A stretch of 32,925 nucleotides of DNA from an uncultured Pseudomonadales bacterium. GTDB taxonomy: Bacteria > Pseudomonadota > Gammaproteobacteria > Pseudomonadales > Azotimanducaceae. The DNA lies in contig CAZNYE010000344.1 in the NCBI GenBank assembly GCA_964577185.1, positions 1-32,925 on the forward strand. Reading direction: 5' to 3'. The position numbers and the translations under genes are program-made. Below are positions 9,426 through 32,925 of this stretch, piece by piece. How positions within the stretch are numbered: position 1 is the stretch's first letter; every line of letters begins with the position of its first letter. The notes beneath the pieces were generated by a model, which was not told the origin of the DNA, made no database searches, and saw nothing but the letters and a program-made list of their open reading frames with translations.

Positions 9426-9431
9426 AATTTG

Positions 9432-10885: not shown

Positions 10886-10893
10886 CTACCGAT

Positions 10894-11133
10894 TCACAGG
10901 TCAATCTCTCGACCTGGCTCGAGTGGTCGCTGCGGAATCGCGTGATCACCCACAAGCGGTGAGCGCCGAAGTGCTTGTAGGATTGCGCCTCTTTCTTGTG
11001 CCTTGCCGACGAGCTCACGGCGCGTGACTTCCCGAAGCCTTTCAGCCCCTGGGCCGTCCTGGCACAATCGATCGGCGAACAAGCGGATAAGCTCGCGATC
11101 CGTCTCCCGCCCAATGATCTCGAAGCGGGTCAT
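10894..11133 (-). CDS. vapB: FitA/VapB-like (Arc/RHH-type) antitoxin homologue, divergent
   Basis: 'FEIIGRETDRELIRLFADRLCQDGPGAERLREVTRRELV' aligns without gaps to the 'ltIRnLddelkrrLrvRAa.hGrSmEaEaReILr' pattern. The C-terminal '...PLEPGREIDL' tail is typical. It lies immediately upstream of the PIN remnant. Confidence 0.45.
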   Translation of the reverse strand: MTRFEIIGRETDRELIRLFADRLCQDGPGAERLREVTRRELVGKAQERGAILQALRRSPLVGDHAIPQRPLEPGREIDL

Positions 11134-11370
11134 ACCGCGCTGCGTTGATTGGCTGCGACCTTTGTTAATGGTCTGTCTTTGAAGTGACCCGTCCAAGATT
11201 TGTCTCCATAGCAATGCAAGAAAAATATAGGGTAACGCCCTAGAAAACAAGTTATCGACAGATCTGTGGCCTACAGTAGACGCAGTCGAGAAGCAGTGCC
11301 ATTCTCACACACTGCAACAGCGTTAAATTTGTTCCTACGAGCAACCACCGAAAACTGACAGACTGAACCA

Positions 11371-12063: not shown

Positions 12064-12090
12064 GTTGATGGCGAAGCAATCCGCAGCGCC

Positions 12091-12864
12091 CTAAGGGAAG
12101 TCCCCAAGCTCCCGCAACATTCGCTTGAGCGCAAAGTGTCGATAGCTCGCGAGTGTCAGATCTTCGATCTCGTCCCAGTCTGCATCATCTTCGACGTCGA
12201 GTTCGATCCACCCGTTGTGGCCTATGTAGGGGGGAATGCGGTAACGAGGGTCGAATGTGAGCGCGGCTTGACCATCCTTCCCGGTCCAGAATTGCAATCG
12301 AATGCGACGTTCCCTGCTGTGGGCGATCACGAAGGTCTTCTTGCCAGCCTTCCAGGCGGGATTGCCGAACTGGGCACCCTCTGCGGTTTCCGGCAGCGCG
12401 AGGCAAATCTCACGCAGTTTGGACAGCACTTCTTGTGCCCTTGGTCTCGCTAAGGGGTCAAATTCTTCAACCGGAAGCGTCTCGGTTGGTGGCTCGATGT
12501 TGATCGTCTCGCCAAGGAGATGTGTTAGATCCCGTGGCGCTACATGCTCGTAGGCTTCTCGCACCCGCTCAGCGACAGTGCTCCAACGCAGGCCCTTGTC
12601 GAGGTGCACGCCAAGCCAGCCCCGCGGCCCAAGGTAGGGCGGCACGAAATAGTACTCGGGCTCAGTGCTCGTATAGAACTCTTGGGAACCTTCTGGGACA
12701 TGTAGCCAAAGCGCGATTCGCCCGTCTCCATGATGATTGACGACATATGTGGCGAAGGTCCTGCCAGCCACACGGAAGTCCGGCGACCCCCGCGATGGTC
12801 GCTCTTCGGTCTCCGGGAAAGACAGGCATACTTCGCGCACCGCATGGCTTATGTTCTTTGCCAA
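12091..12864 (-). CDS. MmcQ/YjbR-family protein (two tandem YjbR-like domains)
   Basis: Two repeats begin 'VREVCLSFPETEERPSRGSPDFRVAGRTFA' and 'LREICLALPETAEGAQFGNPAWKAGKKTFV', the characteristic YjbR N-terminal block. Confidence 0.65.
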   Translation of the reverse strand: MAKNISHAVREVCLSFPETEERPSRGSPDFRVAGRTFATYVVNHHGDGRIALWLHVPEGSQEFYTSTEPEYYFVPPYLGPRGWLGVHLDKGLRWSTVAERVREAYEHVAPRDLTHLLGETINIEPPTETLPVEEFDPLARPRAQEVLSKLREICLALPETAEGAQFGNPAWKAGKKTFVIAHSRERRIRLQFWTGKDGQAALTFDPRYRIPPYIGHNGWIELDVEDDADWDEIEDLTLASYRHFALKRMLRELGDFP

Positions 12865-12907
12865 GGCTAATTCCTTTTGTAGAGGTTACGTGTCATCGCG
12901 GTCATCC

Positions 12908-13693
12908 TCAGGTGGCAAAGGCTACCCTGACCGAGCCAAGCCCCTCGATTCGCGCCTCCACCACATCGCCAGGGGCCACCGGCACCATCGGCCCGAGTGC
13001 GCCGGTCAAGATCGTGTCTCCGGCATCGAGCGGCATGCCCACCTCGACCATCTTACGGGCCAGCCAGAGCGCCGCGTTGAGTGGATTGCCGAGGCATGCG
13101 GCACCGCTGCCGATGGAGGTCTGATCGCCGTTGCGTTCCATCACCATGCCGCATTCGCGTAAGTCGATGTCGCCGAGCTTCACCGGTCGGGTGCCGAGCA
13201 CATACATCCCAGAGGAGGCGTTGTCGGCCACTGTGTCAAGGATTTCGATACGCCAGTCGGCGATGCGGGAACCCACTACCTCGATGGCCGGGAGCGCGTA
13301 GGCGACGGCATCGATTAAATCGATCAATGTGAGCTGATCGCGGCCCAAGGCGGAATGCAGCACCAACGCCACCTCGGCCTCGCAGCGCGGCTGCAACACG
13401 CTGCCCGCAACGATTTCCTCGCCATCGGCCAGGCACATGTCGGCGAATAGCATGCCGAAGTCAGGCTGGTTGACACCGAGTTGCTCCTGCACCGCCTTCG
13501 CTGTCAGCCCAATCTTCCGCCCTACTATTCGGCGGCCTTCCCTCACCCAATGCTCGGTGTTGGTTTGCTGCACGCGATAGGCGGCGCCGATGTCGCCTTC
13601 GGACAATCTGTCGCGGACAGGTTCGATGGGTTCGCCGTCTTGCCAAGCCGTGCGTATGTCAGCGGCTATCTCGGCGATCAAGTCTTCGCTCAT
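12908..13693 (-). CDS. mhpD: 2-keto-4-pentenoate (2-oxopent-4-enoate) hydratase
   Basis: Near full-length similarity to E. coli MhpD as I recall it: '[29 protein letters not shown]', '[14 protein letters not shown]', '[10 protein letters not shown]', '[14 protein letters not shown]', '[10 protein letters not shown]'. Confidence 0.85.
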
Positions 13694-13784
13694 CGCTTGC
13701 TCCTAAAGCGCTCTATTGACACTTTCGCCACCCTTCTACTATGGTTTTCGCCCATTGCCTAATATGATTTTCGCCAAGTAGGAA

Positions 13785-15089
13785 GTGCGCGTTGTGGACA
13801 GCACACACATATTACCCCGGCATCTAAGCGCTGAGCTCGAAGATGCGCTGAGCTATTCGCGTGTTGTGAATGTCGTGGGAGCTCGACAAGTCGGGAAGAC
13901 TACGCTTGTCCGGGATATCCTTCAGGCGGGGCGATTTATCTCGCTAGATGACGATGCGGTACTCGAAGCCATGGAGGCTGATCCTTGGGGCCAATTGCAG
14001 CGCCTTACGGAACAGACGAAGGGGTCGCCTCTGATCATTGACGAAGCACAACGTTCCAAGCGGCTGCCACTGGCCATAAAGAGAGTGGTAGACCTCAGCA
14101 ATCGACCGGGCCAATTCGTGCTCACTGGCCCTTCAAATGTGTTCACGACTCAGCATGTGGCCGATTCATTGGCAGGCCGGATGGTGACATTGACCCTGTG
14201 GCCATTGACTATGGCCGAAACTCTACATAGGAGCCCGTCGCAGTTTCTCGACTGGTCGGTGTCTCCAACCTTGGACATTGCCGATCTGCCCGAACCAGAG
14301 CCCGCGACTAGAGAAGACTATATAGATTACATCCTGAGGGGAGGATTTCCCGAAGTCCGAAGTCTTGAAGAGCGGCGTCGTCAGTTGACATATCGTCAAT
14401 ATGTCAACTCGATCGTTGAGCGTGACGTGGCAGACATTCTCCGCATCCGAAAGAGTGACGCACTCGGCCGCTTAATCAATCTGCTTGCCATTCGTACGGG
14501 CACAGAATTAAACATTGAGGAACTGGGCAAACTCGTCCGAGTGCAACGACTCACCTTGGAGCAATACCTCGATTTATTGACACGATTGTCACTTGTGATC
14601 AAGCTCGGGGCGTGGTCCTCCGGCGAAGCTGGCCGCGAAATCAGAAACGCAAAGCACCACTTCGCCGATACTGGAATCGCGGCCGCCCTTCGTGGGCTAG
14701 CCCTGCCGTCTTTCGACCCTGATGCCAATCCCTCGGCACTCGGCGGACTTCTTGAAAGCTTCGTGTTCTCGGAGCTTCTGAGATCCTCGCCCTACCAGAG
14801 TAATAGTTTTCGGTTCTATCACTGGCGGGACCGGCGCGGCCGGGAGATTGACATTCTTGCCGAGAGCGGAACTGCCTTGTGCGCTGTCGAAGTGAAAGCG
14901 TCGACATCTGTAAGTCATCAAGACTTCAAACACCTTCGATGGTTCGCCACGGAAGGGCCGGGACGGTCCCGTCAGGTGAGCTCATTTGTTCTCTATCTAG
15001 GGGAGCACAAGCTCAGTTTTGCGGATCGGATGTTCGCGTTGCCGGTCAGTTGTCTCTGGGGCGGGCGCAAGAATTCGAGCAGCAATTGA
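13785..15089 (+). CDS. AAA+ ATPase with DUF4143-type C-terminal domain
   Basis: Walker A 'VGARQVGKTTLV' and Walker B-like 'PLIIDEAQR'. The C-terminal 'YHWRDRRGREIDILAE...CAVEVKAS' resembles a PD-(D/E)xK-like DUF4143 block. GTG start. Confidence 0.75.
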   Translation: MRVVDSTHILPRHLSAELEDALSYSRVVNVVGARQVGKTTLVRDILQAGRFISLDDDAVLEAMEADPWGQLQRLTEQTKGSPLIIDEAQRSKRLPLAIKRVVDLSNRPGQFVLTGPSNVFTTQHVADSLAGRMVTLTLWPLTMAETLHRSPSQFLDWSVSPTLDIADLPEPEPATREDYIDYILRGGFPEVRSLEERRRQLTYRQYVNSIVERDVADILRIRKSDALGRLINLLAIRTGTELNIEELGKLVRVQRLTLEQYLDLLTRLSLVIKLGAWSSGEAGREIRNAKHHFADTGIAAALRGLALPSFDPDANPSALGGLLESFVFSELLRSSPYQSNSFRFYHWRDRRGREIDILAESGTALCAVEVKASTSVSHQDFKHLRWFATEGPGRSRQVSSFVLYLGEHKLSFADRMFALPVSCLWGGRKNSSSN

Positions 15090-15183
15090 TTTTGACTTTG
15101 ACAGAATCGCTACAATCGCACACTTCTAAGCACTCGGTCCTCGGCAAGCTCGTGACACAAGCACCGGAACTCGCTGAGCTTCT
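15083..15183. repeat. direct repeat copy 1 (101 bp), decayed duplicate of the nitroreductase 5' region
   Basis: Aligned by eye to 16063-16163 at a constant offset of 980 bp, with 91/101 identical. The start codon of copy 2 (AATG) reads TAAG here. Confidence 0.85.
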
Positions 15184-15222
15184 GAGCGATTTAGCTGCGT
15201 CCAGAATTTTGAGAATCGTAAC

Positions 15223-15699
15223 TCACTCCTCTCTCGGATGTTGGGACGTTAGGACCGCCTCTTTTCCCGCTGCCACTCCTTGTTGCATGGAAAGCGCTCT
15301 TCCGATCAGACGTGCATCTGTTGATTCCGCTACCTTGTTACGCAAGCGGTGATCGGCAGTGATCATTGGCCAGTTGTTTTCTATGGCCAACATCAGGTAG
15401 ATGCAGTCGTAAGCGGCGTGATCGAGTTGAATTGCAAGCTCCGTTGCGCCGTTCATTAGGTGCCGCGTTGGCAAGATTTCAACGTTCGCTTGTTGCAATA
15501 GTCTAGATGCGGCGATGGCTTCATCATGTGTGAGATCACCTCGTCGCGCCTTTTTCCAGAGAATGTTCGCGCACTCGGCTATCAATAGATCCGGAGCTGA
15601 CAGTAAGCAGTTTTCCAAGACTGCAACAGCGAGCGAGGAATCTGATTCTTCCACTACCCACTTAATTGCCACGCTGGCATCTATAACGAACCGCCTCAC
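15223..15699 (-). CDS. vapC: PIN-domain toxin (VapC family)
   Basis: 'MRRFVIDASVAIKWVVEE' and 'PMITADHRL' are PIN acidic-residue blocks. 4-nt overlap with the upstream antitoxin gene. Confidence 0.8.
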   Translation of the reverse strand: MRRFVIDASVAIKWVVEESDSSLAVAVLENCLLSAPDLLIAECANILWKKARRGDLTHDEAIAASRLLQQANVEILPTRHLMNGATELAIQLDHAAYDCIYLMLAIENNWPMITADHRLRNKVAESTDARLIGRALSMQQGVAAGKEAVLTSQHPREE

Positions 15700-15935
15700 C
15701 TTTCTTGACGGCCTTCACGTTGCAAGTCTTCGGATGGCGTTTGTCTTCTACCTTGCGTGAGTTTGCGCATACGGGCCGCTAGCTCAATAAACGAGGGCTC
15801 AACTTCAGCGGAGAGCGCTTGCCGCAGTATCTCTCGATGCTCCGCTTCTGCGGAGCGTCCGTTGTGGGCGGCGCGCCGCCTGAGGCGGATCACAAGGTCA
15901 TCTTCCAAATTGCGAACTTGCAAACTCTTGGGCAT
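15696..15935 (-). CDS. vapB: FitA/VapB-like Arc/RHH antitoxin
   Basis: 'LQVRNLEDDLVIRLRRRAAHNGRSAEAEHREILRQAL' is a canonical ribbon-helix-helix antitoxin N-terminus. Confidence 0.8.
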   Translation of the reverse strand: MPKSLQVRNLEDDLVIRLRRRAAHNGRSAEAEHREILRQALSAEVEPSFIELAARMRKLTQGRRQTPSEDLQREGRQER

Positions 15936-16062
15936 ATCCGACAGCTCGCCTCAAAACGCTATATCTGACCTCATTGATAACAAGAAGTCAATTGAATTCT
16001 GCGAGTTCAAACTGTCTGTACCATGCGGCTACTAGCACTTTCGCCAGCCGTGCGACCACACT

Positions 16063-16729: not shown

Positions 16730-17056
16730 TTATCGCAATAGACGTTGTTCCAGTATATTCTGCAAACTTCTTCTTCCATCCACGATCAACTGGACAAACA
16801 CTTCTCGTCCGATCACCTCGTAGATGATGCGGTAGGGCTTGAAGTGGATTTCACGAAATTCCTTGATGCCTAGGGGTAATAGCTCCGGTAGAAAATGTCC
16901 TCGTTCGGGGTTTTGCTCAAGCCGCTCGCAGGTTTCGAGTAGTTTCTCAAGCACATAGTGGGCTTGGTCCAATGAATCTCGTTGTGCGATGTATGCCGCG
17001 GGTTCTGCCAAGTCGATTTCGGCTTCCTCGACGATCCTCACTCGATATTGGGTCAC
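16730..17056 (-). CDS. parE: RelE/ParE-family toxin
   Basis: '...[37 protein letters not shown]' is a typical ParE/RelE C-terminal block. GTG start. Confidence 0.75.
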
Positions 17057-17061
17057 GCCTC

Positions 17062-18087
17062 TTGCTTTGCGAGCTCAGCCTGTTCTCTGGCGCTGGCGGT
17101 ATGGATTTGGGCGTCGACAAGTCGGGATTTAGGACGCTCTTGTCCGTCGAACGCGATGTGCACGCTGGCGCGACGCTGCTCGCGAATGCGGGCCGCAAAC
17201 TGGTGTGGCGAACCGATGTTCGGGCGCTTGATCCCTTGCGCACAATTCAATTGCTAGACCTAGGTCCGGGTGATCTGGCGCTCCTTCACGGCGCGCCACC
17301 CATCCACCAATCGCCCGGCCCTTCACTTCGGGTCGAAACGCTCCAATCTCCCATGTTTGAAATGCTGAGGTTCGCTGAAATCTTGCGACCAACTTGCGTC
17401 TTCATCGAACAACCACCGAGCGCGATTAGCTCTTGGCTTACCGGTGGTCGACGACTGGTTGGTGAGCTGCACCGAAGATTTGAGGCGCTTCAATATGACC
17501 TTCACTTGGACCTACTTGATGCTGGCATCGCGGGGCTGTCTCAGTCACGTGTTCGTGCCGTGTTGGTCGCGGTGCCTGCGGGAGCGGAATTCGAATTGTC
17601 GCTTGCCGGAATATCCGCAATCCAATCGGTTGGTGAGGCTTGGCAAGGCCTGCCTATGCCGACCCCAAGAGGAGTTCAGTCGAATCTCGCGAATCATGTT
17701 GACGCTACGCCTCCAAGGGCAAGGGAACGCATCCGATACGTGCCTGAAGGCTCTTGGCTCAGCAAAGCGAAGAACGCGCCCGCCGAAGTGAAAGGAAAAC
17801 TGACCGCGAGGGATACAACCAAGTTTCGTCGTCTTGCGTATCAAAAGCCGTCGCAGACACTGTTTGCGGGGGAGATATTCTTCCATCCCACAGAGGATCG
17901 GTATATCACCCCACGCGAAGCGGCGCGATTACAGGGGTTTCCAGACAGCTACCGATTTGAAGGGCCGATTGGGCGGCGCACTTCGGCGGGCGCAAGTCTT
18001 GATCAGCATCGCCAGATCGCCGAAGCCACACCGCCACCTTTCGCAGCAGCGCTCGCATCCAAACTCGCGGCACTCTTGCCTGCTTGA
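17062..18087 (+). CDS. DNA (cytosine-5)-methyltransferase homologue lacking the catalytic cysteine (probably inactive or decaying)
   Basis: Motif I '[13 protein letters not shown]' (17083-17100), motif VIII '[11 protein letters not shown]' and motif IX '[20 protein letters not shown]' are present. Motif IV reads '[10 protein letters not shown]' (17296-17310) instead of GGPPCQ. Motif VI reads 'FIEQPP' instead of ENV. Motif X reads 'IAEATPPP' instead of GNAVPP. A TTG at 17062 is the only start-like codon close to motif I. Confidence 0.6.
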
Positions 18088-18090: not shown

Positions 18091-20550
18091 TTACGCTTTG
18101 CTGCCTCGATGCGTGAGTACCAAGAGGCTAGGCAACAAGGTCAGGTTGGCGATGAGCGCAAGTCCCATGGCAATCGACACCAGCAGTCCGAACATAATCG
18201 TTGGCACAAAATTCGAAAACACCAACACGGAAAAACCGATGATGATGGTGATGCCGGTGAGGTAGAGCGCCCGCCCAATGCTTGCGTGGCACGCGGCGAC
18301 CGAGGCCTTTGCGTCCTGTCGGTCAACCAGTTCGGTGCGATACCTGTGTAGATAGTGAATTGCGAAGTCGACTCCTATGCCAACAGAAATAGCCGCGATG
18401 GTCGTGGTCATCATGTCGAGTGGGATGCGCGCGAGTCCCATGAAACCAAGCACGGCCGCAGCGGACAAGAGATTGGGAATGAGGCCGAGCAGGGCGAATT
18501 TCAGTGAACGAAGGAGTATCAGAAACATGGCGAAGGTCGCGAGCACCACATAGGCGAGGGTGTCCCGCTGCGATGCGAAGAGTTCGTTGAGCATGCCGTT
18601 GAACAGCACGACCATGCCGGAAACCGCGACTTCATCTGCTTGGAACCCCAACTCCTCTTGGGCAAGAGACTCGACTTCGGTAACGAGCGCGTCTCGGTCA
18701 AAATAGGGCCCGCTCTCGTTTACTCGTCCAGATAGACGCATCTGACCGGTTGCGGGCGATGCATAGGGGTCGATGAGCTCTGTTCTGATGGTCTGCGGCA
18801 CAGCGCCGAGAACGCCGACGATCTCCAAGTCGTTCAAGGGCCTTCCCTCCGTGAATTGGCGCGCCAACTCATCGAGCGAATACATGGAAAGCACCTTTCC
18901 GACTTCCGGCCTTGCCTCGAGCGCCTTGTGCAGGGATTCGAGGCGGTCCAGCTTGTCGCGGGAGAACCAGTACCGTTCTGGGAAGGCATCAACCTCATCG
19001 GCGAAGAAATCGTCTTCTATCTCCACCTGCTCCCAGGGATTGAACGAAACCACAACCTCGAAAGGCACAGTGCCGCCAAGATTCTGGTCTATGTACACCA
19101 TGCCCCGGTAGATCTCGGTGTCCTCCTGAAAGTAGTCGATGAAGCGATTGTCGAGGGAGAGTCTTGAAATACCGATCAGCGCCAATGCCGCGATGATCAG
19201 GCTGGCACAGGAAACCATGACCGGCCGCGTGCGCGAGATCTTACTCAGCCCTCGAATGAAAGCGGCCTCGTTCTTTTCAAGCCCCGTGTCCGCCGAATCA
19301 TCGAGCAGCCTGAGCACGGCTGGAAACAAGGTGAAGGCGGTCAGGAATGCGAGCGCGACTCCGAGGCACATCATCCAACCGAAGTCTTCGACGGGAACAA
19401 TGTTGCTGACCGTGAGAGAACCGAATGCGGCGATGGTCGTCAGCGCGGTATAGAGGCAGGGCGCAAACTTGCTGATCATGGTTTGCGAAATCAGTTCGCC
19501 GCGACGCGGGCCATCCTCTTGGGCTCGCAGTTCGCGATAGCGAACAATCAAGTGGATGGTGAGCGATATGGTCATGATGAGAAGCAGGGCCACGAAATTG
19601 GAGGAAATCACCGTGGCCGGTTTCTGTACCCACCCGAGTACGCCGGTTGTGTAGAGCACTGTCATTCCCGCCGTGGCCACCGGTAATAGCACCCAGCGAA
19701 CCTGGCGAAAGGCGATGAAGAGCACCAACATGATGAGTAGCACAACTGTGCCGCCGAAGATCAAGAGGTCGCTCTGTACGAAGGCGATCATGTCCGCTGC
19801 GATCATGGGCACGCCGCCTATGTGTACTCGCCCATAGGCCGAAAACTCGCGTTGAATATCGCGAATCTCGGCAATCAATCTCGCTCGGGATTCCAGATAG
19901 ATCTTGCGCGCCTCTGTGTACTCAAGATCAAGCCGCGCAAGCTCAGCATTCTCCTCGTCGCTGAGTGCTTCCTTGGTGCGCAGTTCGCTACGACGGTCTG
20001 TGATGCCGTCAAGCGCCTCATCGGGGGCGATGTTGGCGCGCATGGCCCCGGCGGTGCCATCGTTAGAGATCAGAAGTTCGTGAAAGAGAGGACTTTCCTG
20101 AAGTTCCGCGATGGCGAGGTTGCGGTCTACCTCAGGTGATCGTAGCGTTTTGAGTCCCTGCGCAAGTTGGGTGAGTGGAACAGGAGGACTTCGCAACAAC
20201 GGCACATCGAGCAGGGAGAATACGGACGAAACGCCTGGCACCGCGCCGATGCGCTCTTGGAGTTCTCCCATGCGCTCGATGCTGGCATCGGAGAGTAACG
20301 GCCCCTCGTGCGGCGAAAAGGTAATCAGTAGAAAATCGTCGCCGGTGAAGGTCTCTGTGATTTCCTCATAGGCCGCGAAGGCGGGGTCGCCTTCCACGAC
20401 CAATGTTTCTGCCGACGCATCGAAAGTGAATCGGGTCGAGAAGTAGACCGCCAGTACGCCAAACAGCGCTCCGATCATGAGCACTGTGACCCGGCGGGCA
20501 AGTATTGCCGAGTACCAAGCCTTAATATTCGCTGAATGCAAATAGCTCAT
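18091..20550 (-). CDS. RND-superfamily exporter (MMPL / HpnN-like, sterol-sensing-domain type)
   Basis: 819 aa with two repeats, each a large soluble loop followed by a block of hydrophobic helices. This architecture and length are typical of MMPL/HpnN-type RND transporters. Confidence 0.7.
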   Translation of the reverse strand: MSYLHSANIKAWYSAILARRVTVLMIGALFGVLAVYFSTRFTFDASAETLVVEGDPAFAAYEEITETFTGDDFLLITFSPHEGPLLSDASIERMGELQERIGAVPGVSSVFSLLDVPLLRSPPVPLTQLAQGLKTLRSPEVDRNLAIAELQESPLFHELLISNDGTAGAMRANIAPDEALDGITDRRSELRTKEALSDEENAELARLDLEYTEARKIYLESRARLIAEIRDIQREFSAYGRVHIGGVPMIAADMIAFVQSDLLIFGGTVVLLIMLVLFIAFRQVRWVLLPVATAGMTVLYTTGVLGWVQKPATVISSNFVALLLIMTISLTIHLIVRYRELRAQEDGPRRGELISQTMISKFAPCLYTALTTIAAFGSLTVSNIVPVEDFGWMMCLGVALAFLTAFTLFPAVLRLLDDSADTGLEKNEAAFIRGLSKISRTRPVMVSCASLIIAALALIGISRLSLDNRFIDYFQEDTEIYRGMVYIDQNLGGTVPFEVVVSFNPWEQVEIEDDFFADEVDAFPERYWFSRDKLDRLESLHKALEARPEVGKVLSMYSLDELARQFTEGRPLNDLEIVGVLGAVPQTIRTELIDPYASPATGQMRLSGRVNESGPYFDRDALVTEVESLAQEELGFQADEVAVSGMVVLFNGMLNELFASQRDTLAYVVLATFAMFLILLRSLKFALLGLIPNLLSAAAVLGFMGLARIPLDMMTTTIAAISVGIGVDFAIHYLHRYRTELVDRQDAKASVAACHASIGRALYLTGITIIIGFSVLVFSNFVPTIMFGLLVSIAMGLALIANLTLLPSLLVLTHRGSKA

Positions 20551-21579: not shown

Positions 21580-21675
21580 GGCGATAGATCCCGTGGGATG
21601 GTGACCTGTGGCTGCGGGTTTCTGAAGGTCCCGTGGCTGAACTGCAATCCTGACTTGGGGCTAAAATGTCGTTTC

Positions 21676-22716
21676 ATGAATCGGGGGCGAAGCATACTTT
21701 TCACCGGGCCAGCACAGGACGCTTATTCTGACTGGAAATCTCCGGATATCATCATCTCAGATGGCGCCTACGGGATTGGAGGGTTTCCGGGAGATCCTCG
21801 CACACCCGAGGGCCTTGCGGCATGGTACGCCGATCATGTACGCACATGGTCAGAGTGCTCGCACCACGCGACCACCCTCTGGTTTTGGAACACCGAAATT
21901 GGCTGGGCGACTGTGCATCCGTTGTTGGTGCGATACGGATGGGAATACGTTCAGACCATACTTTGGGATAAAGGGCTAGGCCATATCGCGGGAAACGTGA
22001 ACGGCGCGACCATTCGTCGATTGCCAACCGTCACGGAAGTTTGTGTGTTCTACAAACGCCGATTGGAATTTCCGTCTTCCGAGGGGATGGTTCCTGCGCA
22101 TCAATGGCTCCGCTCTGAGTGGCTGCGCGCCGGCCTGCCGTTGTCTAGGGCCAACGAGGCCTGTGGCGTCAAGAATGCCGCTACGCGAAAGTACTTAACG
22201 AATGACTGGCTGTGGTACTTCCCTCCTGCCGATATGATGGGCAGGCTGGTGCGGTATTTGAACAAGCATGGAGATTCTTCCGGTCGGCCCTATTATTCGA
22301 TCAATGGGCGTGATCCGGTCACCGAAAAGGAATGGCAGCGGCTTCGCCATCCGTGGCATCACCAACACGGAATCACCAATGTATGGGCTCATCCTCCATT
22401 GAATGGCCGAGAGCGTTATCGTGGCGATGGTCGCAGGGTTGCGCCAAGAGTTCATAGTCCTGGTAAGAACGCTACCGCGCATCTAAATCAGAAACCACTG
22501 GAACTTATGCGTCGAATTATCAAGATCGCGTCCGAAGAGGGCGATACCTTGTGGGAGCCCTTCGGTGGGCTTTGCTCTGCATCAGTTGCCGCGATTGAAG
22601 CAGGGCGTCATGCCTTTGCCGCTGAACCTGATCCATATTTCGCATCACTAGCGAAGAGCAGGCTTTGTTCTAAGTTGGAGACCGAAGATGGGCGGGACGA
22701 GAATCAAAATGGATGA
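21676..22716 (+). CDS. beta-class N4/N6 DNA methyltransferase (motif order IV...I) with atypical motif IV
   Basis: 'PDIIISDGAYGIG' sits where DPPY/SPPY is expected (DGAY at 21760-21771). 'HLNQKPLELMRRIIKIASEEGDTLWEPFGGLCSASVAA' is the 'QKP...FxGxG' AdoMet block of PF01555-type enzymes. ATG at 21676 is preferred over 21598. Confidence 0.7.
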   Translation: MNRGRSILFTGPAQDAYSDWKSPDIIISDGAYGIGGFPGDPRTPEGLAAWYADHVRTWSECSHHATTLWFWNTEIGWATVHPLLVRYGWEYVQTILWDKGLGHIAGNVNGATIRRLPTVTEVCVFYKRRLEFPSSEGMVPAHQWLRSEWLRAGLPLSRANEACGVKNAATRKYLTNDWLWYFPPADMMGRLVRYLNKHGDSSGRPYYSINGRDPVTEKEWQRLRHPWHHQHGITNVWAHPPLNGRERYRGDGRRVAPRVHSPGKNATAHLNQKPLELMRRIIKIASEEGDTLWEPFGGLCSASVAAIEAGRHAFAAEPDPYFASLAKSRLCSKLETEDGRDENQNG

Positions 22717-23635
22717 TCCTCGTCCTTCACGCCCCGAACGTCATGTTTTTGCCGATGATGAAGCTTCCGGAAAGCTCGTTCGAAACGTGCGTGCCGCACT
22801 CTACGCGCTCCCCGCGTATTTTCAATCAGGAACACGACTGGAAGGCTTGGATGGAGGGGAATTGTTTAGTCTTAGCGGTGTCTTAGGTGGCGCGATAGAA
22901 CATCAAGTAGTTGAGACGCTCAATCGAATTCGGGAGGTTTGGGATCCAGATGACGAGTGGCCGCGCCACCAATTTGTGCGTTTTGCACAGACCTTTCCCG
23001 ATGTGAGACTGCAGGCTTACAACGACGACGGGGAGCCGTCGGTTGCCTTGGGGATCGAACTCAAGGGATGGTATCTCCTGTCAAAAGAGCGTGAACCAAG
23101 CTTCCGCTACTCCGTGACCCCTTCCGCGTGTTCGGCGCGGGATCTTCTGGTCGTGGTTCCTTGGCACTTGAAGAATCTTCTCTCCGGCGAACCGATTGTC
23201 TACGAACCATACATTGAGCAAGCTCGTTATGTAGCTGAACTCAGGAATTGGTGGTGGATGTTCGAGAGGAATTCTCAAGACTCTGAGGCTGAGCGAGGTG
23301 TCAATCCGCCGAATCAGGAAGCGGGCCCCTATCCGCCGCCGAGGGCAAGAATCGCGGACCGGCCATTAAACGACGGGGGAAATAATTTCGGCCGAATTGC
23401 GCGTGTGGACTCGCTCATGAAGGGGTACGTTGCCACCATGCTGAAGAAGCTTATCGCCGGAATTCCCGCGGAACATTGGACACTGTTCTTTCGGCTGCAT
23501 GCTGAAGCGACAGATGCGGAGCAGATTCTAGCGCGATTGCAATCCGAGCTAATCGAAGAGGAGAGTGAACTCAGCGAAGAATCTGTGCAGCAGATAACAG
23601 AAGTTGTTCGTCAAATCGTGAATCTGTTCAAGTAG
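22709..23635 (+). CDS. putative type II restriction endonuclease (PD-(D/E)xK)
   Basis: 'FPDVRLQAYNDDGEPSVALGIELKGWYL' gives a PD...ExK arrangement. It overlaps the methyltransferase stop by 8 nt (29 nt if ATG 22688 is used). Confidence 0.5.
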   Translation: MDDPRPSRPERHVFADDEASGKLVRNVRAALYALPAYFQSGTRLEGLDGGELFSLSGVLGGAIEHQVVETLNRIREVWDPDDEWPRHQFVRFAQTFPDVRLQAYNDDGEPSVALGIELKGWYLLSKEREPSFRYSVTPSACSARDLLVVVPWHLKNLLSGEPIVYEPYIEQARYVAELRNWWWMFERNSQDSEAERGVNPPNQEAGPYPPPRARIADRPLNDGGNNFGRIARVDSLMKGYVATMLKKLIAGIPAEHWTLFFRLHAEATDAEQILARLQSELIEEESELSEESVQQITEVVRQIVNLFK

Positions 23636-27204: not shown

Positions 27205-28272
27205 GTGAATGACTTGCAAATGTTCGAGCCGATGGATAGTCGCCTTGAGGCAGTCTTGGAAGCGCTCCCCGCGGATATTCTCTGCCGAGAGGGAAGGAAG
27301 CGAATCCTTGCTTGCGCGGAGGAGAAGCCTCTGTGTGCACTGCAATCCACCTTCGGCTTTGAGAGTCATCTCGACGAAGCTGCGCCCTACTGTGATTTGT
27401 TTCTGTCGGCGCCACGCGAGTCTCGATTCCTGCAATACCTTGCCGAGCAGGGTTCCAGCCAGGACGCAATCCCGGCCACACAGGGACTTTCCCGGATTGC
27501 AAAGGAAATTGAACACCCCACGAGCGCTTTCTTTGCTTGGGCGCGTTCGCTTGTTCTTGAGTACGACCTTGCTGTGGCTCCTTGGTCGGAATCGAGAGCG
27601 CCCGGCATCTTTATTGCACTGTCGGAAGAACTGGCGACAAGCCATGCGGCACAAGCGTCAGGTGATATCAAACCAAGACGCGAAGCACACATGATTGCGA
27701 GCATTTTTTCTTGCATGGACGCTGGTGAAGAAGTCGCCCAGTATCAAGCAGCGATCAAAGATGCGCTGTATGTTTTACCCGCGGGGGGTCGAGTCCTACA
27801 TGTGGGCACTATGCCGGAGCGCGCCGCACAGCTGGCGCGATTGGTGCTGTCTATGCCGAGTTCGCAGCTTCTCCACTACCTGCAATTGCTTGGATGGGGC
27901 GGCCCCTTGCACGAATTGAATAGTCTGCTGCAATTGGCCGGAGAATGGTGTGGCGGAAGTAGGGTTAGCTTGTCCTTGGATGTTTCTCGCGAAGGCGTTT
28001 CTGATCGCCTTGGTCTCGAGCTTTATCTTGAGCAACCTTGGCACAGTGCGCCGCCTGGATCTTGGGGCAATTGTCTTCGACATCTGGTGGAGGCGGGGTG
28101 GAGCCGCAAAGAAAAGGCTGCTGGTCTCTTGAATTGGCCTCGTACCGATATGATCTTGTCTGAAAAGGGCAGCTATAAGCTCTTAACAGGGATTAATCAC
28201 CTCAAGTTAACCCTAGAGGCGGGGAGCGTTCGAAGCAAAGCCTATATGGGTGCCTTTCTGTTCGGGCAATGA
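27205..28272 (+). CDS. hypothetical protein (355 aa); an ABBA-prenyltransferase-like strand/helix pattern is only a weak impression
   Basis: Long ORF whose stop overlaps the downstream start (ATGA at 28269-28272). It has repeated strand-like blocks ('FGFESHL', 'LVLEYDLAV', 'RVSLSLDVS...RLGLELYLE', 'INHLKLTLEAGSVRSKAYMG'). The start is ambiguous between GTG 27205 and ATG 27220. Confidence 0.55.
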   Translation: MNDLQMFEPMDSRLEAVLEALPADILCREGRKRILACAEEKPLCALQSTFGFESHLDEAAPYCDLFLSAPRESRFLQYLAEQGSSQDAIPATQGLSRIAKEIEHPTSAFFAWARSLVLEYDLAVAPWSESRAPGIFIALSEELATSHAAQASGDIKPRREAHMIASIFSCMDAGEEVAQYQAAIKDALYVLPAGGRVLHVGTMPERAAQLARLVLSMPSSQLLHYLQLLGWGGPLHELNSLLQLAGEWCGGSRVSLSLDVSREGVSDRLGLELYLEQPWHSAPPGSWGNCLRHLVEAGWSRKEKAAGLLNWPRTDMILSEKGSYKLLTGINHLKLTLEAGSVRSKAYMGAFLFGQ

Positions 28273-29240
28273 GCGATCGCACTTCTCTCGGGCCGCTCCA
28301 AGGAACCGCGCCGTTGCGGGCAATTGCGGAGTCCATAAAGCGCGGATTTACCTTCTTGCAGGCGAGCGTCTCACCAGAAGGTGTGTGGGAGAGCCACTAT
28401 CACGTTTCCTCGACACCCGACACCTTGATCAAGGAAGAGAACCCCTTCGTCGGTGCGCTAGGTTCCTTGCGGCTCGAACGCATGGCGCGAAAGGAAGCGA
28501 CGGAAATCATTCTTCGCACACGGGCCTATACCAAGAATGTCATGGAATACCCTGGCGTGTGGCGCTATTGGCCACATCTTCCGCCGGATGCGGATACCAC
28601 CTCCACCTGTGCTTTGTCACTTGGGGGGGCACATCCCTGGTTGCTCGCAGGCTGGGGGGAGAAACTGATGGTCGACTGCTGCGATGAGGCTGGCAGGTTC
28701 CACACTTGGATTGCGGGCAAACGAAAGGAAGGCTTTGACGCCGATGCTGTGGTGAACGCTCATGTCATCGCTTACATGGGAGACACTGCGAGCACTCGAC
28801 CTGCTCATAAATGGCTCGTTTCCCTCCTCAATGCACATCGGGAACGCGAGGCGATTCATTACTATTGGGATGAAATCGACTTCTACGCTGCCATGGTGCA
28901 GGCGAACAATACGCACGGCTCTTTGTTTGTGGACGCACTCGCGCACATCGCGTCGCGAATTCACGCGCGTCGCGGACAGGATGGATCCTACGGAGACCAG
29001 TTGCGCACGAGCCTGGCAGTCCTATCCCTGCTGGATCTTGAAGCGCCGCCGAGCCGAGACGAATTGATTGCTTCCGCAGGCTATCTGTTGCGAAGGCAAT
29101 CGAAAGATGGCGGCTGGCCGAGTTCTCAGCTTTCATCAGGCCCCATATGGCCAGATGAGCGCACATTTGTGTTTCGCTCCAGAGCTTTTGATACCACTTG
29201 CTGTCTTGCTGCTCTGGATAGGATTGGTCAGGTGTGTTGA
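28269..29240 (+). CDS. prenyltransferase/squalene-oxidase-repeat (alpha/alpha-toroid, class II terpene-cyclase-like) protein, single-domain size
   Basis: Repeat motifs 'SPEGVWES', 'RRGQDGSYGD' and 'RRQSKDGGWPSS' (QxxDGGW type). 'PPDADTTSTCAL' (DADTT at 28587-28601) aligns with the DxDDTA acid motif region of squalene-hopene-type cyclases. No LanC Zn motifs are present. Confidence 0.6.
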   Translation: MSDRTSLGPLQGTAPLRAIAESIKRGFTFLQASVSPEGVWESHYHVSSTPDTLIKEENPFVGALGSLRLERMARKEATEIILRTRAYTKNVMEYPGVWRYWPHLPPDADTTSTCALSLGGAHPWLLAGWGEKLMVDCCDEAGRFHTWIAGKRKEGFDADAVVNAHVIAYMGDTASTRPAHKWLVSLLNAHREREAIHYYWDEIDFYAAMVQANNTHGSLFVDALAHIASRIHARRGQDGSYGDQLRTSLAVLSLLDLEAPPSRDELIASAGYLLRRQSKDGGWPSSQLSSGPIWPDERTFVFRSRAFDTTCCLAALDRIGQVC

Positions 29241-29268
29241 CACCGTGTCGTCAGGCACTTGTCGCGGT

Positions 29269-32187
29269 TTATTCGAGCAGTTGCCTCTCCATCAGACTGC
29301 GAAATAAGCCGGACACGCTTGAGAGCTGTGCGTAGTTGCCAGATTGCACGAGCCTTCCCTGCTCAAGGACTAGGATCTTGTCTGCCTCCTTGATGGTGGA
29401 AAGTCTATGCGCGATCACGATTCGAGTGGCTGCCAGCGACTCGATGTTCTTCATGACTCGAGCTTGGGATTTGTTGTCGAGCCAGTTGGTGGCTTCGTCG
29501 AGGAACACAAACCGAGGTTTGCGAATGATCGCGGCGGCGAGCAGAATTCGCTGAATCTGCCCACCGGAATAGAGCGCCGAACTATCGCCTACTGGTGTCA
29601 GCATGCCGAGATGCATTTGCCGAATATCTTCCTCAATGGTGGCTAAACGCGCCGCTTCCCATGCTTCTGCCTCACCGAGGTCATGCGCAATCCCGGTGAT
29701 GTTTTGAAGCAGGGTGCCCGGTTGAAGCGAGCCGTTCTGGGCCACAACCCCCAGTTGTCTTCTCAAAGCACGTTTGTTGAGGTGGGAGATATCGTAATTG
29801 TCGTAGTAGATGGCACCGGACGCGGGCCGTTCGAGGCCGAGTGCGAGGTTCATCAGGCTTGTCTTTCCTGCACCCGACTCTCCCACAACTGCCACGAACT
29901 CTCCGGGTAGGATGTGGAAGGAGATATCCTTAAGGACGAGCTCTACTTCGCCCGGGTAGCAAAAGCTCACATGGTCGAAGCGGAGCTCCCCGCGTAGCGT
30001 AATCTCCATACCCTGTTCCTGGGGGCCACTATCAAATCCTTCAGGCGCTGTCTGCAACAGCGGTGGAATCTGCTGATATTCCGAAGGAATCGATGAAAGT
30101 GCCTGGACCGAAGCACCCAAACGGGCTGTCGCAGAAAAGAACAGCATGGAACCGGTGTAGACAACGAGGAATTCGGCGATTGAGAACTGGTCACGAATGA
30201 ACAGGGCGGCCGTGAAGAGGGCTGTTGCAGCGAGGTAGGGAACGCTCGATGTGACGGCGAGCGTGAAGGTGTTGATGCGGGCAATTGAGATTTCGGCTTC
30301 CTTCTGGCGCACATATCCATTCGCCCAGAATGCGAAAGCGCTTTGCTCGGCACCAGTGGAGCGCAGCTTGTGTATCCCGCTAATAAGTTGATACAACGTC
30401 CCGGACAGGCGTTGCCGCTGGCGAAAGAACTCCTTATGGGGCCGGAGTTGCAGCGCTCCCGACGCAGCGACAAATGCGAGGGCGACAAGGCCTATACAGA
30501 GGCTGATGAGCGCGAGCTTGATATCGAAGAGGAATAGGAGGAACAGGATCGGAAAAATGAAAACAACGGAGATCAAGGAATTGGCGACTAGGCTCGAAGC
30601 CCGATCCCGGAGATTTTGAAAGACCATGGCGCGTGAGGCGAGCTCTCCGGCGGAGAAGCCTCTTAGGCTATTGAGAGGCACACCAAGTAGTCGATCCCAA
30701 AGCGCCGCCGAGAGTCGCGTGGCCGTGCGAGCCTCAACTCGAAGCAGCGTCGAATTCTGCAGATAGGTCATCGCCATTCCTAGGAGGGCCACGAACACAA
30801 GCGCAACTCCAAGGCTAGGTAAGAGTTCTAGATTTTCGCGCCAGGCCACCCATTGCGCCAGCTTGGCAAGCGCGAACGCCGGCAGAAAGCTGAGGATTCC
30901 GACGGCAAAGCCAGTCAACAGAAAGCGAACAGCTTCTAGGGGTAGCCCTTGCTTGGCGATTGCCAGAATATCTTTCGTGGTCGTCGTGCGCTTCGGTAGT
31001 GGTCGGTAAAACACCCAGGCTCGCTCCCCAATGCTTTGCACATCTTTGGAACTCACCCGTCTAGTCTGCCCTTTGGTTGGGTCGACCATTCGGTAACGAC
31101 CGAAATTGCTGGGCACTAACGCGAGTGGGCGAAAGTCTTCGCAGTGATGCGCGAGCATGGAAAAGCTGTCGCCCACCCACCAATAGGGCGAAGATGCCAG
31201 ATTGACCTCGCGTGCACGCACGCCGGATGCCAACAAGACACTTGTCAAGGTTGTCGGCGCATCCCCCTTGGGAACCATGAAGTCGATGCCCTCTCTTTTG
31301 CCAATTGCCTGCAAGGCCTGCAGGAGCGCCGATTGCGAGTCACTGGCGGCCGTCCGCCTGCTTGTGGAAACTCGCGCCAATTGCTCGCGGGCGGTGTCTT
31401 CGGCCTCTTGGCGCAGCCTTGTACTATCAATTTGAAGTTGTGCGATATCGACTAAATCGAGTTTGCGATTGAGCTTCTCCGCGTCTATGGCAAGAACTTG
31501 AAATTTGTAAACGAGGTCCACCAATAGTTCTCGTTCAAGGAGTTGCAGGGAGGAAAGAGTTTCGATGGCGGAGGTCTTGTGGTATGTCGCCCAGGACTGT
31601 GGACACAGCGCAATAAAACAAGGCGGTTGGTGATCCGTTTCTCCGGTGCTCAGGAAGGCGGGCACCGGATTCGATGTGACCCACACCACGCCACGTTGCG
31701 ATGAGACCACGGACTTCTCGGGAAGGTCGGTTTTCATGCCGGGGTGAAGCGTCATGCTTATGCTCGGCGAGAGCGGGATGTCTTCGGCTATGGCCTGAGA
31801 AAGACGCTCTAGCCACAGGTCAACTTCTCCGGCGAACGCCTCTGGTGACAAGTGTGCAAGGAATCCCGCAAGTGGAATCTTGTGTACCCTATATCCAGGG
31901 GATCCTTTCATTCGTAATTGAAATTGGGATTCGCGGTTTCGATCCACCGCAAAGACGAGCCGACCCTCGTCTGCGCGGGCCAAATGCTTGTAGCTTGAGA
32001 CGACCTCGCTCTGCTTGATTTCAACAAGAAAGACATCGACACGCCCGGATTCCACATACCAGACAAAGGCCTCATCGTCGAGAATGAGTTCGTCTACAAC
32101 CCTGTCAAAGGCTTCCGTGCTGATCGCCTGCAATCCTTCGGCGCTTAGCTTCTGAATTCGATTCAAAGACGCGGCCTCGCTATTCAC
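29269..32187 (-). CDS. ABC exporter (permease + ATPase) with ~330-aa N-terminal cNMP-binding-like region; NHLP-bacteriocin-system type
   Basis: Walker A 'GESGAGKTS', signature 'YSGGQIQR', Walker B 'FVFLDEAT', 'VIAHRL'. Six-helix TMD in the middle. The N-terminal 'FVWYVESGRVDVFLVE...GRLVFAV' beta-roll-like segment, total length and pairing with a second exporter match NHLP-family transporters as I recall them. Confidence 0.7.
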   Translation of the reverse strand: MNSEAASLNRIQKLSAEGLQAISTEAFDRVVDELILDDEAFVWYVESGRVDVFLVEIKQSEVVSSYKHLARADEGRLVFAVDRNRESQFQLRMKGSPGYRVHKIPLAGFLAHLSPEAFAGEVDLWLERLSQAIAEDIPLSPSISMTLHPGMKTDLPEKSVVSSQRGVVWVTSNPVPAFLSTGETDHQPPCFIALCPQSWATYHKTSAIETLSSLQLLERELLVDLVYKFQVLAIDAEKLNRKLDLVDIAQLQIDSTRLRQEAEDTAREQLARVSTSRRTAASDSQSALLQALQAIGKREGIDFMVPKGDAPTTLTSVLLASGVRAREVNLASSPYWWVGDSFSMLAHHCEDFRPLALVPSNFGRYRMVDPTKGQTRRVSSKDVQSIGERAWVFYRPLPKRTTTTKDILAIAKQGLPLEAVRFLLTGFAVGILSFLPAFALAKLAQWVAWRENLELLPSLGVALVFVALLGMAMTYLQNSTLLRVEARTATRLSAALWDRLLGVPLNSLRGFSAGELASRAMVFQNLRDRASSLVANSLISVVFIFPILFLLFLFDIKLALISLCIGLVALAFVAASGALQLRPHKEFFRQRQRLSGTLYQLISGIHKLRSTGAEQSAFAFWANGYVRQKEAEISIARINTFTLAVTSSVPYLAATALFTAALFIRDQFSIAEFLVVYTGSMLFFSATARLGASVQALSSIPSEYQQIPPLLQTAPEGFDSGPQEQGMEITLRGELRFDHVSFCYPGEVELVLKDISFHILPGEFVAVVGESGAGKTSLMNLALGLERPASGAIYYDNYDISHLNKRALRRQLGVVAQNGSLQPGTLLQNITGIAHDLGEAEAWEAARLATIEEDIRQMHLGMLTPVGDSSALYSGGQIQRILLAAAIIRKPRFVFLDEATNWLDNKSQARVMKNIESLAATRIVIAHRLSTIKEADKILVLEQGRLVQSGNYAQLSSVSGLFRSLMERQLLE

Positions 32188-32925
32188 TCATGACCAATTC
32201 CCTATACAGGCCGCCTTGCTCCGAGATGAGTTGGTCGTGGCTGCCGCGCTGAACAGTTTTCCCTTTTTGCAGCACAATGATCTCGTCACAATCTCGGATG
32301 GCGCTGAGCCGATGGGCGATGATGACGCATGCGCATCCCCTTCTGCGCAAGGCATCGTCTATTTGTCTTTCCACGGCTGCATCGAGCGAGCTGGTCGCCT
32401 CGTCGAGCACTAAGAGGGAGGGTCGGCTCACGAGCGCCCGAGCGATTTCCAATCGTTGCCGTTGACCGCCGCTAAAGTTGATTCCGCCCTCCTCGACATG
32501 CCCCGAATAGTTGAGTCGGCGCCTCGCAATGTCATCGTGAATAGCGGCGTCCCTTGCCGCATTTGTGATCATGCCGTCTGGGACCGAGGCGTTCCACATG
32601 GTGAGGTTGTCTCGGATAGTGCCTGAAAACAGCGAGATCTGTTGATCAACGAATGCGACAGATTCACTCATGATGCTGCGTGGAACATCTTCACGCGGAT
32701 GTCCGTCGAACAGTACCTGCCCCTGCCAGGATTGATACACACCAGCAATCAACAGCGCCAAGGTTGATTTTCCAGCACCACTCGGCCCGATGATGGCAAC
32801 CCTTTGCCCCGGTTTAACTTTAAGATTAAAATTCTCGATGAGCGGACCACTGTGACCCCGATAACCGAAGGAAACGTCACGGAGCTCAAGGTGTCCAGCG
32901 AGCCTCAGGCGCCCATCAATGGTGG
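32180..32925 (-). CDS. ABC exporter ATPase domain, C-terminal part of a gene that continues beyond the right edge (likely the peptidase/permease/ATPase partner)
   Basis: The ORF track starts at a TTG (32761), but my translation stays open to 32925: '...LELRDVSFGYRGHSGPLIENFNLKVKPGQRVAIIGPSGAGKSTLALL'. Signature 'FSGGQRQR', Walker B 'LLVLDEAT', 'IIAHRL'. 8-nt overlap with the downstream exporter gene. Confidence 0.75.
   Translation of the reverse strand, partial: TIDGRLRLAGHLELRDVSFGYRGHSGPLIENFNLKVKPGQRVAIIGPSGAGKSTLALLIAGVYQSWQGQVLFDGHPREDVPRSIMSESVAFVDQQISLFSGTIRDNLTMWNASVPDGMITNAARDAAIHDDIARRRLNYSGHVEEGGINFSGGQRQRLEIARALVSRPSLLVLDEATSSLDAAVERQIDDALRRRGCACVIIAHRLSAIRDCDEIIVLQKGKTVQRGSHDQLISEQGGLYRELVMSE

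Follow-up and report, generated by a model that had tools for sequence, protein, structure and literature searches.

We analyzed a stretch of DNA of 32,925 nucleotides (nt), called the window below, which comprises positions 1 to 32,925 of contig CAZNYE010000344.1 (assembly GCA_964577185.1) from an uncultured Pseudomonadales bacterium of the Azotimanducaceae. Toward the end of the window, two overlapping genes, here called A and B, face the genes of a peptide exporter of the NHLP type, and the function of this pair is the subject of the present analysis. The features on which the argument draws are listed here by position.

27205..28272, plus strand: open reading frame (ORF) A, encoding protein A (355 amino acids [aa], GTG start)
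28269..29240, plus strand: ORF B, encoding protein B (323 aa)
28269..28272, plus strand: ATGA stop/start overlap of A and B, read directly in the sequence
28587..28601, plus strand: putative proton-donating DxDTT motif of B (D107-A-D109-T-T, residues 107-111)
29097..29117, plus strand: canonical QxxDGGW (QW) repeat of B (QSKDGGW, residues 277-283)
29241..29268: convergent spacer of 28 nt, from the stop of B to the stop of ABC2
29269..32187, minus strand: ABC2, an NHLP-type bacteriocin export ATP-binding cassette (ABC) transporter permease/ATPase subunit (972 aa) with ABC_membrane and ABC_tran domains
32180..32925, minus strand: ABC1, the C-terminal 247 aa of an NHLP export ABC transporter with C39 peptidase, running off the window end

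At the junction of the two genes (...GGGCAATGAGCG...), the TGA of A overlaps the ATG of B; B stops at 29240 and the minus-strand 972-aa ORF of ABC2 has its stop codon at 29269-29271. Coordinates and sequence thus confirm an earlier note on this DNA, which had described two genes sharing an ATGA overlap and ending 28 nt from an NHLP-type exporter operon. The public database call for protein A is 350 aa long, starting from an ATG at 27220. An ATGA overlap is common among bacteria and carries no significance alone; the arrangement of A and B is significant because the pair and its context are conserved in other genomes, and not because of the overlap itself. A consensus scan found no terminator-like hairpin in the 28-nt spacer, and a promoter/terminator scan around the pair gave nothing exceeding shuffled expectation. 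The best match of ABC2 was TIGR03797 NHLM_micro_ABC2 (624.7 bits, residues 286-970, below the equivalog cut-off of 709.4); its N-terminal extension of ~285 aa is covered by neither TIGR03797 nor any Pfam domain. The ABC1 part matched TIGR03796 NHLM_micro_ABC1 (315 bits, model positions 522-709), and its frame, which has no stop before the window end, shares 93% identity with residues 440-686 of the complete ABC1 in a related locus (L003; related loci carry L numbers here). Only the ATPase end of ABC1 lies inside the window; for the C39 domain and for the precursor, the relatives L001-L003 are the sole source.

Protein A could not be annotated by sequence, and only a fold search was informative. 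No Pfam or NCBIfam family was found at E<=0.01, and no match to PDB sequences at E<=10, even with a 15-sequence family profile, in keeping with the earlier note, which could put no name to this 355-aa protein. In the AlphaFold (AF2) model of protein A (predicted local distance difference test [pLDDT] 84.9, predicted template modeling score [pTM] 0.86), whose C-terminus reads ...SKAYMGAFLFGQ, there are five repeats of two strands and two helices, with strand pairs at residues 49-55/63-70, 113-120/134-139, 196-202/211-218, 253-261/264-274, and 322-338/341-354 and two helices after each. The model has the ten-stranded antiparallel beta-barrel, built of five repeats, of the ABBA fold. When the model was compared with the PDB using Foldseek, 20/20 of the best matches were ABBA aromatic prenyltransferases (probability 0.97-1.0), with NphB/Orf2 at the top (E 3.6e-7) and CloQ, PriB, AmbP1, bacterial and fungal DMATS, PirF, CymD, FgaPT2, FunA, NotF, and CdpNPT among the others, while the matches beneath the top 20 were chance barrel matches only. 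The template modeling (TM) scores against ABBA structures were 0.44-0.56, except for PirF (rank 12, TMq 0.35). The faint resemblance to ABBA prenyltransferases seen earlier was thereby borne out, and the possibility that the fold of A might be unrelated to prenyl transfer, which would have spoken against the idea, did not hold, the predicted fold being a prenyl-transfer fold. Protein A did not fall within the curated ABBA sequence families (Orf2/NphB, DMATS, and cyanobactin prenyltransferase types). On the basis of the modeled fold, we consider protein A a candidate ABBA-fold peptide prenyltransferase.

A HMMER scan of 1.84 billion representative proteins placed 2683 representative clusters in the A family at E<=1e-3 and 1382 at E<=1e-10, and the cluster names in the look-up read only 'hypothetical protein'. 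Judged by these sequence matches, protein A belongs to a large family of its own, to which neither a Pfam nor an NCBIfam model corresponds. In a set of 37 diverse members, D64 was invariant, and E53, E119, D121, R206, R212, K304, H332, K334, K345, and Y347 were at least 90% conserved. Most of the latter sit on predicted barrel strands, and, going by these predicted positions, such a set of acidic residues, basic residues, and Tyr would be compatible with a diphosphate site lined by the barrel. A-family genes are also present in cyanobacterial LanM/Nif11 clusters (Nostoc and Pseudanabaena plasmids). On plasmid pPg_03 of Pseudanabaena galeata, an A-family domain lies inside a 597-aa coding sequence annotated as a 2-oxoglutarate [2OG]-Fe(II) oxygenase (L086 7986-9779), which sits in a LanM/Nif11 lanthipeptide cluster. 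Tandem A-A proteins of ~680-720 aa, with two prenyltransferase domains, were also seen (P0130, P0146 from Sorangium sp. So ce233, and P0201).

The AF2 model of protein B (pLDDT 91.0, pTM 0.90) is an all-alpha barrel. Its best Foldseek match was the cyclase domain of drimenol synthase (E 6e-12, TMq 0.76), followed by MstE and the entries 8PAK, 8PAJ, and 6IJ1 (TMq 0.68-0.73), of which 8PAK and 8PAJ are myxobacterial single-domain enzymes ('squalene-hopene cyclases' in the PDB); identity to drimenol synthase and MstE was 16-20%. With 323 aa, protein B has the size and form of a single-domain alpha/alpha-barrel (~320-360 aa, without gamma or alpha domains), and the family profile of B reached squalene-hopene cyclase (SHC) at E 3e-13, plus several single-domain cyclases. 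Both Asp residues of the DxDTT motif, D107 and D109, were invariant in 35 B-family members, down to 37% identity, so that a loss of these residues, which the earlier note had named as a finding that would count against it, was not seen. Invariant across the same 35 sequences were the aromatic residues W98, Y100, W101, W147, W182, Y199, Y206, Y241, and W283 and the Arg residues R83, R99, R230, and R235. In order to align the motif with solved cyclases, we used a profile (A3) from the N-terminal two thirds of B, with which HMMER paired LPPDxDTTS of the B family with PADADST of 8PAK/8PAJ and PEDADST of 6IJ1, an alignment that is weak but consistent; phmmer with a 104-aa segment of B against the solved cyclases gave chance matches only. 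By sequence alignment, then, protein B carries the Asp-rich general-acid motif (DxDD or DxDTT/DxDST) of class II cyclases. Drimenol synthase depends on D331 and D333 of its DxDTT for catalysis, the proton being donated by D333 (PMC12365925).

Fold and conserved motif agree with the earlier proposal that the 323-aa protein is of the class II cyclase type with DADTT at the place of the acid motif, and as modeled, protein B is a class II terpene cyclase with a single domain, of the TC-beta type. Of the three QxxDGGW-type repeats that had been proposed, the one at residue 277 is canonical, while those at residue 34 (VSPEGVW) and residue 235 (RGQDGSY) are degenerate, which leaves B short of a full set of QW repeats. 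A second option raised at that time, a protein prenyltransferase beta-barrel, was rejected: farnesyltransferase beta gave a TM of ~0.32, compared to 0.76 for terpene cyclases. No lanthionine cyclase (LanC) was present among the 50 listed fold matches of B.

In the loci of the three closest relatives of A (L001-L003), its neighbors are a convergent ABC2, an ABC1 that includes the C39 peptidase, a HlyD-like fragment of short length, and a small gene (~100 aa), and in L001 and L003 A is followed by B with the same 4-nt ATGA overlap. The short ORF between the precursor and ABC1 (L001 18771-19343, L002 16232-16495, L003 17168-17344; 58-190 aa) varies in length but begins with a conserved segment, F.REEA....A.PDSLDGL.RVD.PH, and contains a membrane helix; it looks like what remains, or the N-terminal portion, of the HlyD-type adaptor that belongs to NHLP export systems. 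A B-profile scan with one genome per species yielded 79 loci, to which hidden Markov models (HMMs) for A, B, and the leader were applied. An A-family gene lay within 10 kb in 40/49 of the loci with a close B (L004-L052), and most of these loci also carry NHLP precursors and ABC1/ABC2, so that the co-occurrence that the earlier note had asked to be surveyed was found. The loci with a close B come from metagenome-assembled genomes (MAGs) of Vicinamibacterales/Acidobacteria, Pseudomonadales, Arenicellales, Pseudohongiella, other Gamma- and Alphaproteobacteria, Spirochaetia, Binatia, Nitrospirales, and Acidimicrobiales, and seven bacterial lineages show the pair linked to NHLP precursors and ABC1/ABC2. 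Several of the MAG bin names resemble what we presume to be published sponge-microbiome sets. In the Pseudomonadales MAG OY760134 (L002 10001-11077), B has been lost from the cluster, which still holds A, the precursor, and the exporters, and 72 nt separate A from ABC2.

Two proteins join the two activities in one chain. In P0178 (732 aa), a B-like domain at the N-terminus (hhalign probability 94.7%, E 6e-8), which retains only the second Asp of the DxDTT motif, precedes a C-terminal A domain, and P0077 has the same domain order, B-like then A. These natural cyclase-prenyltransferase fusions support a joint function of A and B. In Archangium violaceum (L083 8478-11137, L084 5903-8562), three consecutive genes encode a monodomain SQHop_cyclase_C protein of 363 aa, a 39-aa ORF (MMNENIAEQTANLTELNDEALDDLISGG followed by AQELSKTQAWE), and P0016, a distant A-family protein of 378 aa; the trio may represent the system in a myxobacterial form, its leader being short and of the double-glycine type. 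In other relatives, oxygenases flank the pair (in L001 at 8906-9805 and 12105-13571), of the JmjC/cupin type in 20 loci and of the PhyH type in 9 (Vicinamibacterales clade), where they probably add hydroxylation; both types are absent from the clade of the window.

The small genes of L001-L003 (~100 aa) encode NHLP-type precursors. Leaders of the relatives contain the motif L(X)4L as well as a cleavage site of the GG/GA type, with the leader end ...L(X)4L..SGA in L001-L003, and the cores there are SWHATDEEPDQKQNSPQWWDVSPR or SWANRRGDDDNDRNTNAPQWWDQNDYDE, the closest relatives having SWHATDEEPDQKQNSPQWWDVSPR, which in the L003/L002-type precursor follows a leader reading MKTAGQ...AVSGA. Judging from these relatives, the core of the window clade is acidic and Trp-rich, with three conserved Trp (SW...PQWW). 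Cores across the related loci are hypervariable, yet Trp is present in 57/58 distinct parsed cores and stands at the core end in 32/58; it makes up 11% of core residues compared to 0.2% of leader residues, and Asp makes up 12% of core residues. A candidate Trp acceptor is present in the related loci, the window's own precursor being off the contig; since an NHLP precursor lies directly upstream of ABC1 in L001-L003, the precursor gene of this organism is expected past the window end, beyond ABC1. In two Spirochaetia MAGs, with two A paralogues adjoining, precursors end ...SGA followed by YY (L041 5895-6164) and ...SGS followed by SYY (L042 5493-5816), and Cys-rich cores occur elsewhere (LCCCGF in L049 6515-6751, LCCCW in L052 17204-17488). 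Tyr or Cys might be alternative acceptors in precursors without Trp or with very short cores.

Some Gammaproteobacteria MAGs hold dense arrays of ~21 kb with short hypervariable cores, mostly Trp-terminated: three A, one B, and 12 precursors in L019 (1-20915), four A, one B, and 11 precursors in L029, and six A, two B, and six precursors in L039. These arrays have the look of a peptide library that has diversified around a single shared cyclase.

This analysis showed both folds, the conservation of the DxDTT motif, the linkage of the genes, the existence of fusions, and the conservation of Trp in precursors. The overlapping genes, the 40/49 co-occurrence, mostly alongside NHLP precursors and exporters, and the fusions point to a prenyltransferase that serves the same leader-bearing precursor as the class II cyclase. 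We think it probable that A and B are tailoring enzymes of a peptide made by the ribosome and modified after translation (RiPP) with an NHLP leader, which carries a cyclized isoprenoid on Trp. By precedent, the order of steps, the chain length, the indole site, and the product would be as follows. The ABBA barrel of protein A would bind the NHLP leader of the precursor and move a polyprenyl chain (C15 to C20) from the cell's own pool of farnesyl diphosphate (FPP) or geranylgeranyl diphosphate (GGPP) onto a Trp indole within the core, which is short and rich in Asp. Protein B would then protonate the terminal double bond of the attached chain, with D109 of DxDTT as the likely acid, and cationic cyclization would give a bi- or polycyclic terpenoid. 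Finally, the C39 peptidase of ABC1 would cut after the GG/GA site, and ABC1 and ABC2 would export the lipidated peptide. The earlier guess at a terpenoid-modified RiPP was largely right, considering the folds, the DxDTT motif, and a linkage across phyla to NHLP precursors and exporters and not to hopanoid or envelope genes.

Several points weigh against this interpretation. The likeness of A to ABBA structures is one of fold, at a TM of ~0.5 with 11-13% identity, and its likeness to the characterized enzymes NctPC and MppC (see below) is one of descriptions. The single sequence of B scored beneath the cut-offs of PF13243 (16.9 vs 26.1 bits) and TIGR01787 (14.9 vs 322.7). Among the loci with a close B, 9/49 had no A within 10 kb, and in OY760134 a B homologue of 302 aa (51% identical; L087 8001-8909) lies ~900 kb from the cluster, surrounded by the housekeeping genes dapD and dapE and type II secretion genes; the earlier note had held that homologues independent of RiPP genes would refute it, but relatives lie in RiPP clusters with this one exception, and its refuting conditions for the most part do not apply. 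The window holds no precursor gene, the contig ending inside ABC1, and the substrate is therefore taken from the relatives. No polyprenyl synthase motif (FARM/SARM) occurs in the window or in the 87 loci. Among the Pfam-scanned ORFs of the window there was likewise no polyprenyl synthase; with no prenyl diphosphate synthase in the window or the loci, the donor would presumably come from primary metabolism.

The main rival reverses the order of the two enzymes: B would cyclize free GGPP (or a longer allylic diphosphate) first, yielding a bicyclic product that keeps its allylic diphosphate, like copalyl diphosphate, and A would then transfer the pre-cyclized group to Trp. The cyclases that B matches best in structure (drimenol synthase and drimenyl diphosphate synthase) do act on free farnesyl diphosphate, and the sharing of one B by several A paralogues and many precursors in L019, L029, and L039 would suit a common donor. 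The invariant residues R83, R99, R230, and R235 of B could bind a diphosphate, but they could just as well bind the Asp-rich cores (12% Asp). The characterized fused enzymes are reported to transfer first and then cyclize, and MstE likewise cyclizes a chain already on an aromatic head. Full cyclization of FPP gives homoallylic drimenyl-PP, which an ABBA enzyme could not ionize. Overall, we regard the reversed order, including an allylic diphosphate product of B, as unlikely.

Returning to a peptide that is prenylated by A and then cyclized by B, two further alternatives concern what B does and what the pair acts upon. The prenyl group might remain linear if B were inactive as a cyclase and served as a lipid-binding chaperone, scaffold, or immunity protein; its scores under the curated family cut-offs, its single canonical QW repeat, and its absence from the cluster of one genome would agree with this. 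However, in 35 sequences ranging down to 37% identity, neither the Asp pair of DxDTT nor a large number of aromatic residues vary, a pattern that is as expected of an active cation-stabilizing cavity, and the fusions to a prenyltransferase domain keep the second Asp, which makes an inactive B improbable. Alternatively, the pair might make a small-molecule meroterpenoid (a prenylated aromatic acid or indole, then cyclized as by MstE), with the RiPP exporters merely adjacent. Most characterized ABBA enzymes prenylate small aromatics, MstE-type cyclases use small meroterpenoids, and the window itself has no visible precursor; on the other hand, A genes are interleaved with NHLP precursors in many loci (up to 12 precursors, 3-6 A paralogues), the linkage to NHLP precursors and ABC1/ABC2 spans seven lineages, Trp is near-universal in otherwise hypervariable cores, and L001-L003 have no conserved gene for an aromatic small-molecule substrate beside the pair, so that we find a small-molecule product very improbable. 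We see next to no chance that the pair works in the metabolism of hopanoids, sterols, or envelope lipids alongside the MMPL/HpnN-like transporter found at 18-20 kb. This transporter, which has a sterol-sensing domain, and a short-chain dehydrogenase lie 7-9 kb away and are syntenic in the two closest relatives, but only the closest gammaproteobacterial relatives show this synteny, the ground on which the link was rejected. In loci from other phyla, the pair stays with NHLP genes, MMPL not being part of the arrangement; B is half the size of squalene-hopene cyclase, and Pfam scans found no squalene synthase or hpn genes in the window. These last three alternatives fit the co-occurrence and conservation data poorly.

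In the remainder of the window, the Pfam scan placed the following transporter.

18091-20550: MMPL/sterol-sensing-domain transporter (819 aa)

As the earlier note had stated, motif and Pfam scans of the ORFs in the window found no polyprenyl synthase, squalene synthase, or hopanoid genes. A C5 cytosine methylase lies at 16972-18087. An N6/N4 DNA methylase (372 aa) and an overlapping 315-aa protein without a Pfam match (21598-23635) are inserted between an SDR and an MFS gene relative to the syntenic L003, and this insert is probably a restriction-modification module. Positions 1-16000, where G+C is lower (0.48-0.55), hold mixed genes, namely DUF7380 (1197-3026), an M78/IrrE-like peptidase (6737-7504), ThiF (9429-10175), a SprT-like protein, a DUF4143 AAA ATPase (13785-15089), and a PIN-domain protein (15223-15699), and may be a mobile or defense-rich region unrelated to the A/B pair.

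With the A family lacking a Pfam or NCBIfam model and B scoring under the cut-offs, standard annotation and genome mining therefore likely miss such clusters, which profiles from alignments A1/A4 and A2 would flag. The family is dispersed over many uncultivated lineages, and the hypervariability of the cores apart from Trp points to a sizeable untapped set of terpenoid-peptide hybrids. It is a tentative and on balance doubtful suggestion that the product class of the window clade is distinct from the published cyanobacterial example and that the arrays are a combinatorial terpenoid-peptide library. One possible distinct product may be a sesquiterpene (drimane-like) or pre-cyclized terpenoid on at least one of the three conserved Trp (SW...PQWW), which may sit on a highly acidic peptide without another macrocycle, and the arrays in related MAGs (up to six prenyltransferase paralogues, one or two cyclases, and 12 hypervariable Trp-terminated precursors) may have spread horizontally among co-habiting uncultivated bacteria.

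Among known systems, MstE and the TC-beta domain of drimenol synthase share with B a single alpha/alpha-barrel of ~320-350 aa, and the DxDTT of drimenol synthase corresponds to the DADTT of B. Catalysis by both is metal-independent, proton-initiated, and Asp-based. They differ in acting on small molecules (geranylgeranyl dihydroxybenzoate and farnesyl diphosphate, respectively), and drimenol synthase carries an extra HAD phosphatase domain, unlike B. The cyanobactin prenyltransferases PagF, PirF, and KgpF have the ABBA fold and prenylate RiPP side chains including Trp; unlike the role proposed for A, they act leader-free on cleaved cores with C5-C10 donors, and A has no sequence-level match to them, with a lower TM for PirF (0.35). 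MppC is a soluble leader-dependent ABBA lanthipeptide prenyltransferase that geranylates one specific Trp on a Nif11 precursor and does not work unless the Nif11-type leader is complete, its L(X)4L motif included (PMC12715784). Precursors of the related loci likewise carry L(X)4L ahead of the GG site, but MppC transfers C10 to a lanthionine-cyclized core and has no partner cyclase, whereas the window is without LanM.

The nearest parallels are two fused enzymes of one study. In ChrPC, a trans-IDS-like prenyltransferase (IDS, isoprenyl diphosphate synthase) is fused to a cyclase, and an internal Trp is prenylated with C10-C20 donors before the C domain cyclizes the chain (PMC13290415). Prenylation of Trp followed by cyclization is also what is proposed for A and B, but the prenyltransferase of ChrPC is all-alpha (ComQ/PalQ-like) and protein A is a predicted ABBA barrel. 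NctPC (Hubrich et al., Chem 2024, 10:3224), as summarized in the same paper, is an ABBA-type prenyltransferase fused to an MstE-like cyclase in a cyanobacterial RiPP pathway; it geranylgeranylates Trp and then cyclizes the chain, and its prenyltransferase part has low similarity to cyanobactin prenyltransferases (PMC13290415). The product of this pathway is called 'steromaze' in a further source (PMC13647313), and the Hubrich et al. enzymes are described in another as the first to place cyclized C20 and C25 prenylations on RiPPs (PMC12545887). The earlier note, which knew of no described example with a class II cyclase-like enzyme, is therefore out of date on this point, NctPC and ChrPC having been published in 2024 (PMC13290415).

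The window pair resembles NctPC in both of its folds, in the type of leader (the NHLP/Nif11 kind), and in that the cores, as seen in relatives, conserve a Trp. The presence of A-family genes in cyanobacterial LanM/Nif11 clusters suggests, short of proof, that A is in the same family as the characterized enzymes, and we liken it to NctPC by description. In contrast to the single fused protein NctPC, the window pair consists of separate, translationally coupled genes, two ORFs joined by an ATGA overlap; fusion is reportedly common and not obligatory, a typical and not a defining trait. The hosts differ as well (an uncultivated gammaproteobacterium versus a cyanobacterium), the window pair has no adjoining lanthionine synthetase or other tailoring gene, and its core, as read from relatives, is acidic and Trp-rich, unlike the published cases. 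As the natural unfused form of the published bifunctional enzymes, the split pair eases testing of the order of steps, of how the cyclase recognizes a peptide-bound chain, and of mixing and matching enzymes for peptide lipidation. The chemistry was first published in 2024, and the window pair is a new split example of it and not a new principle.

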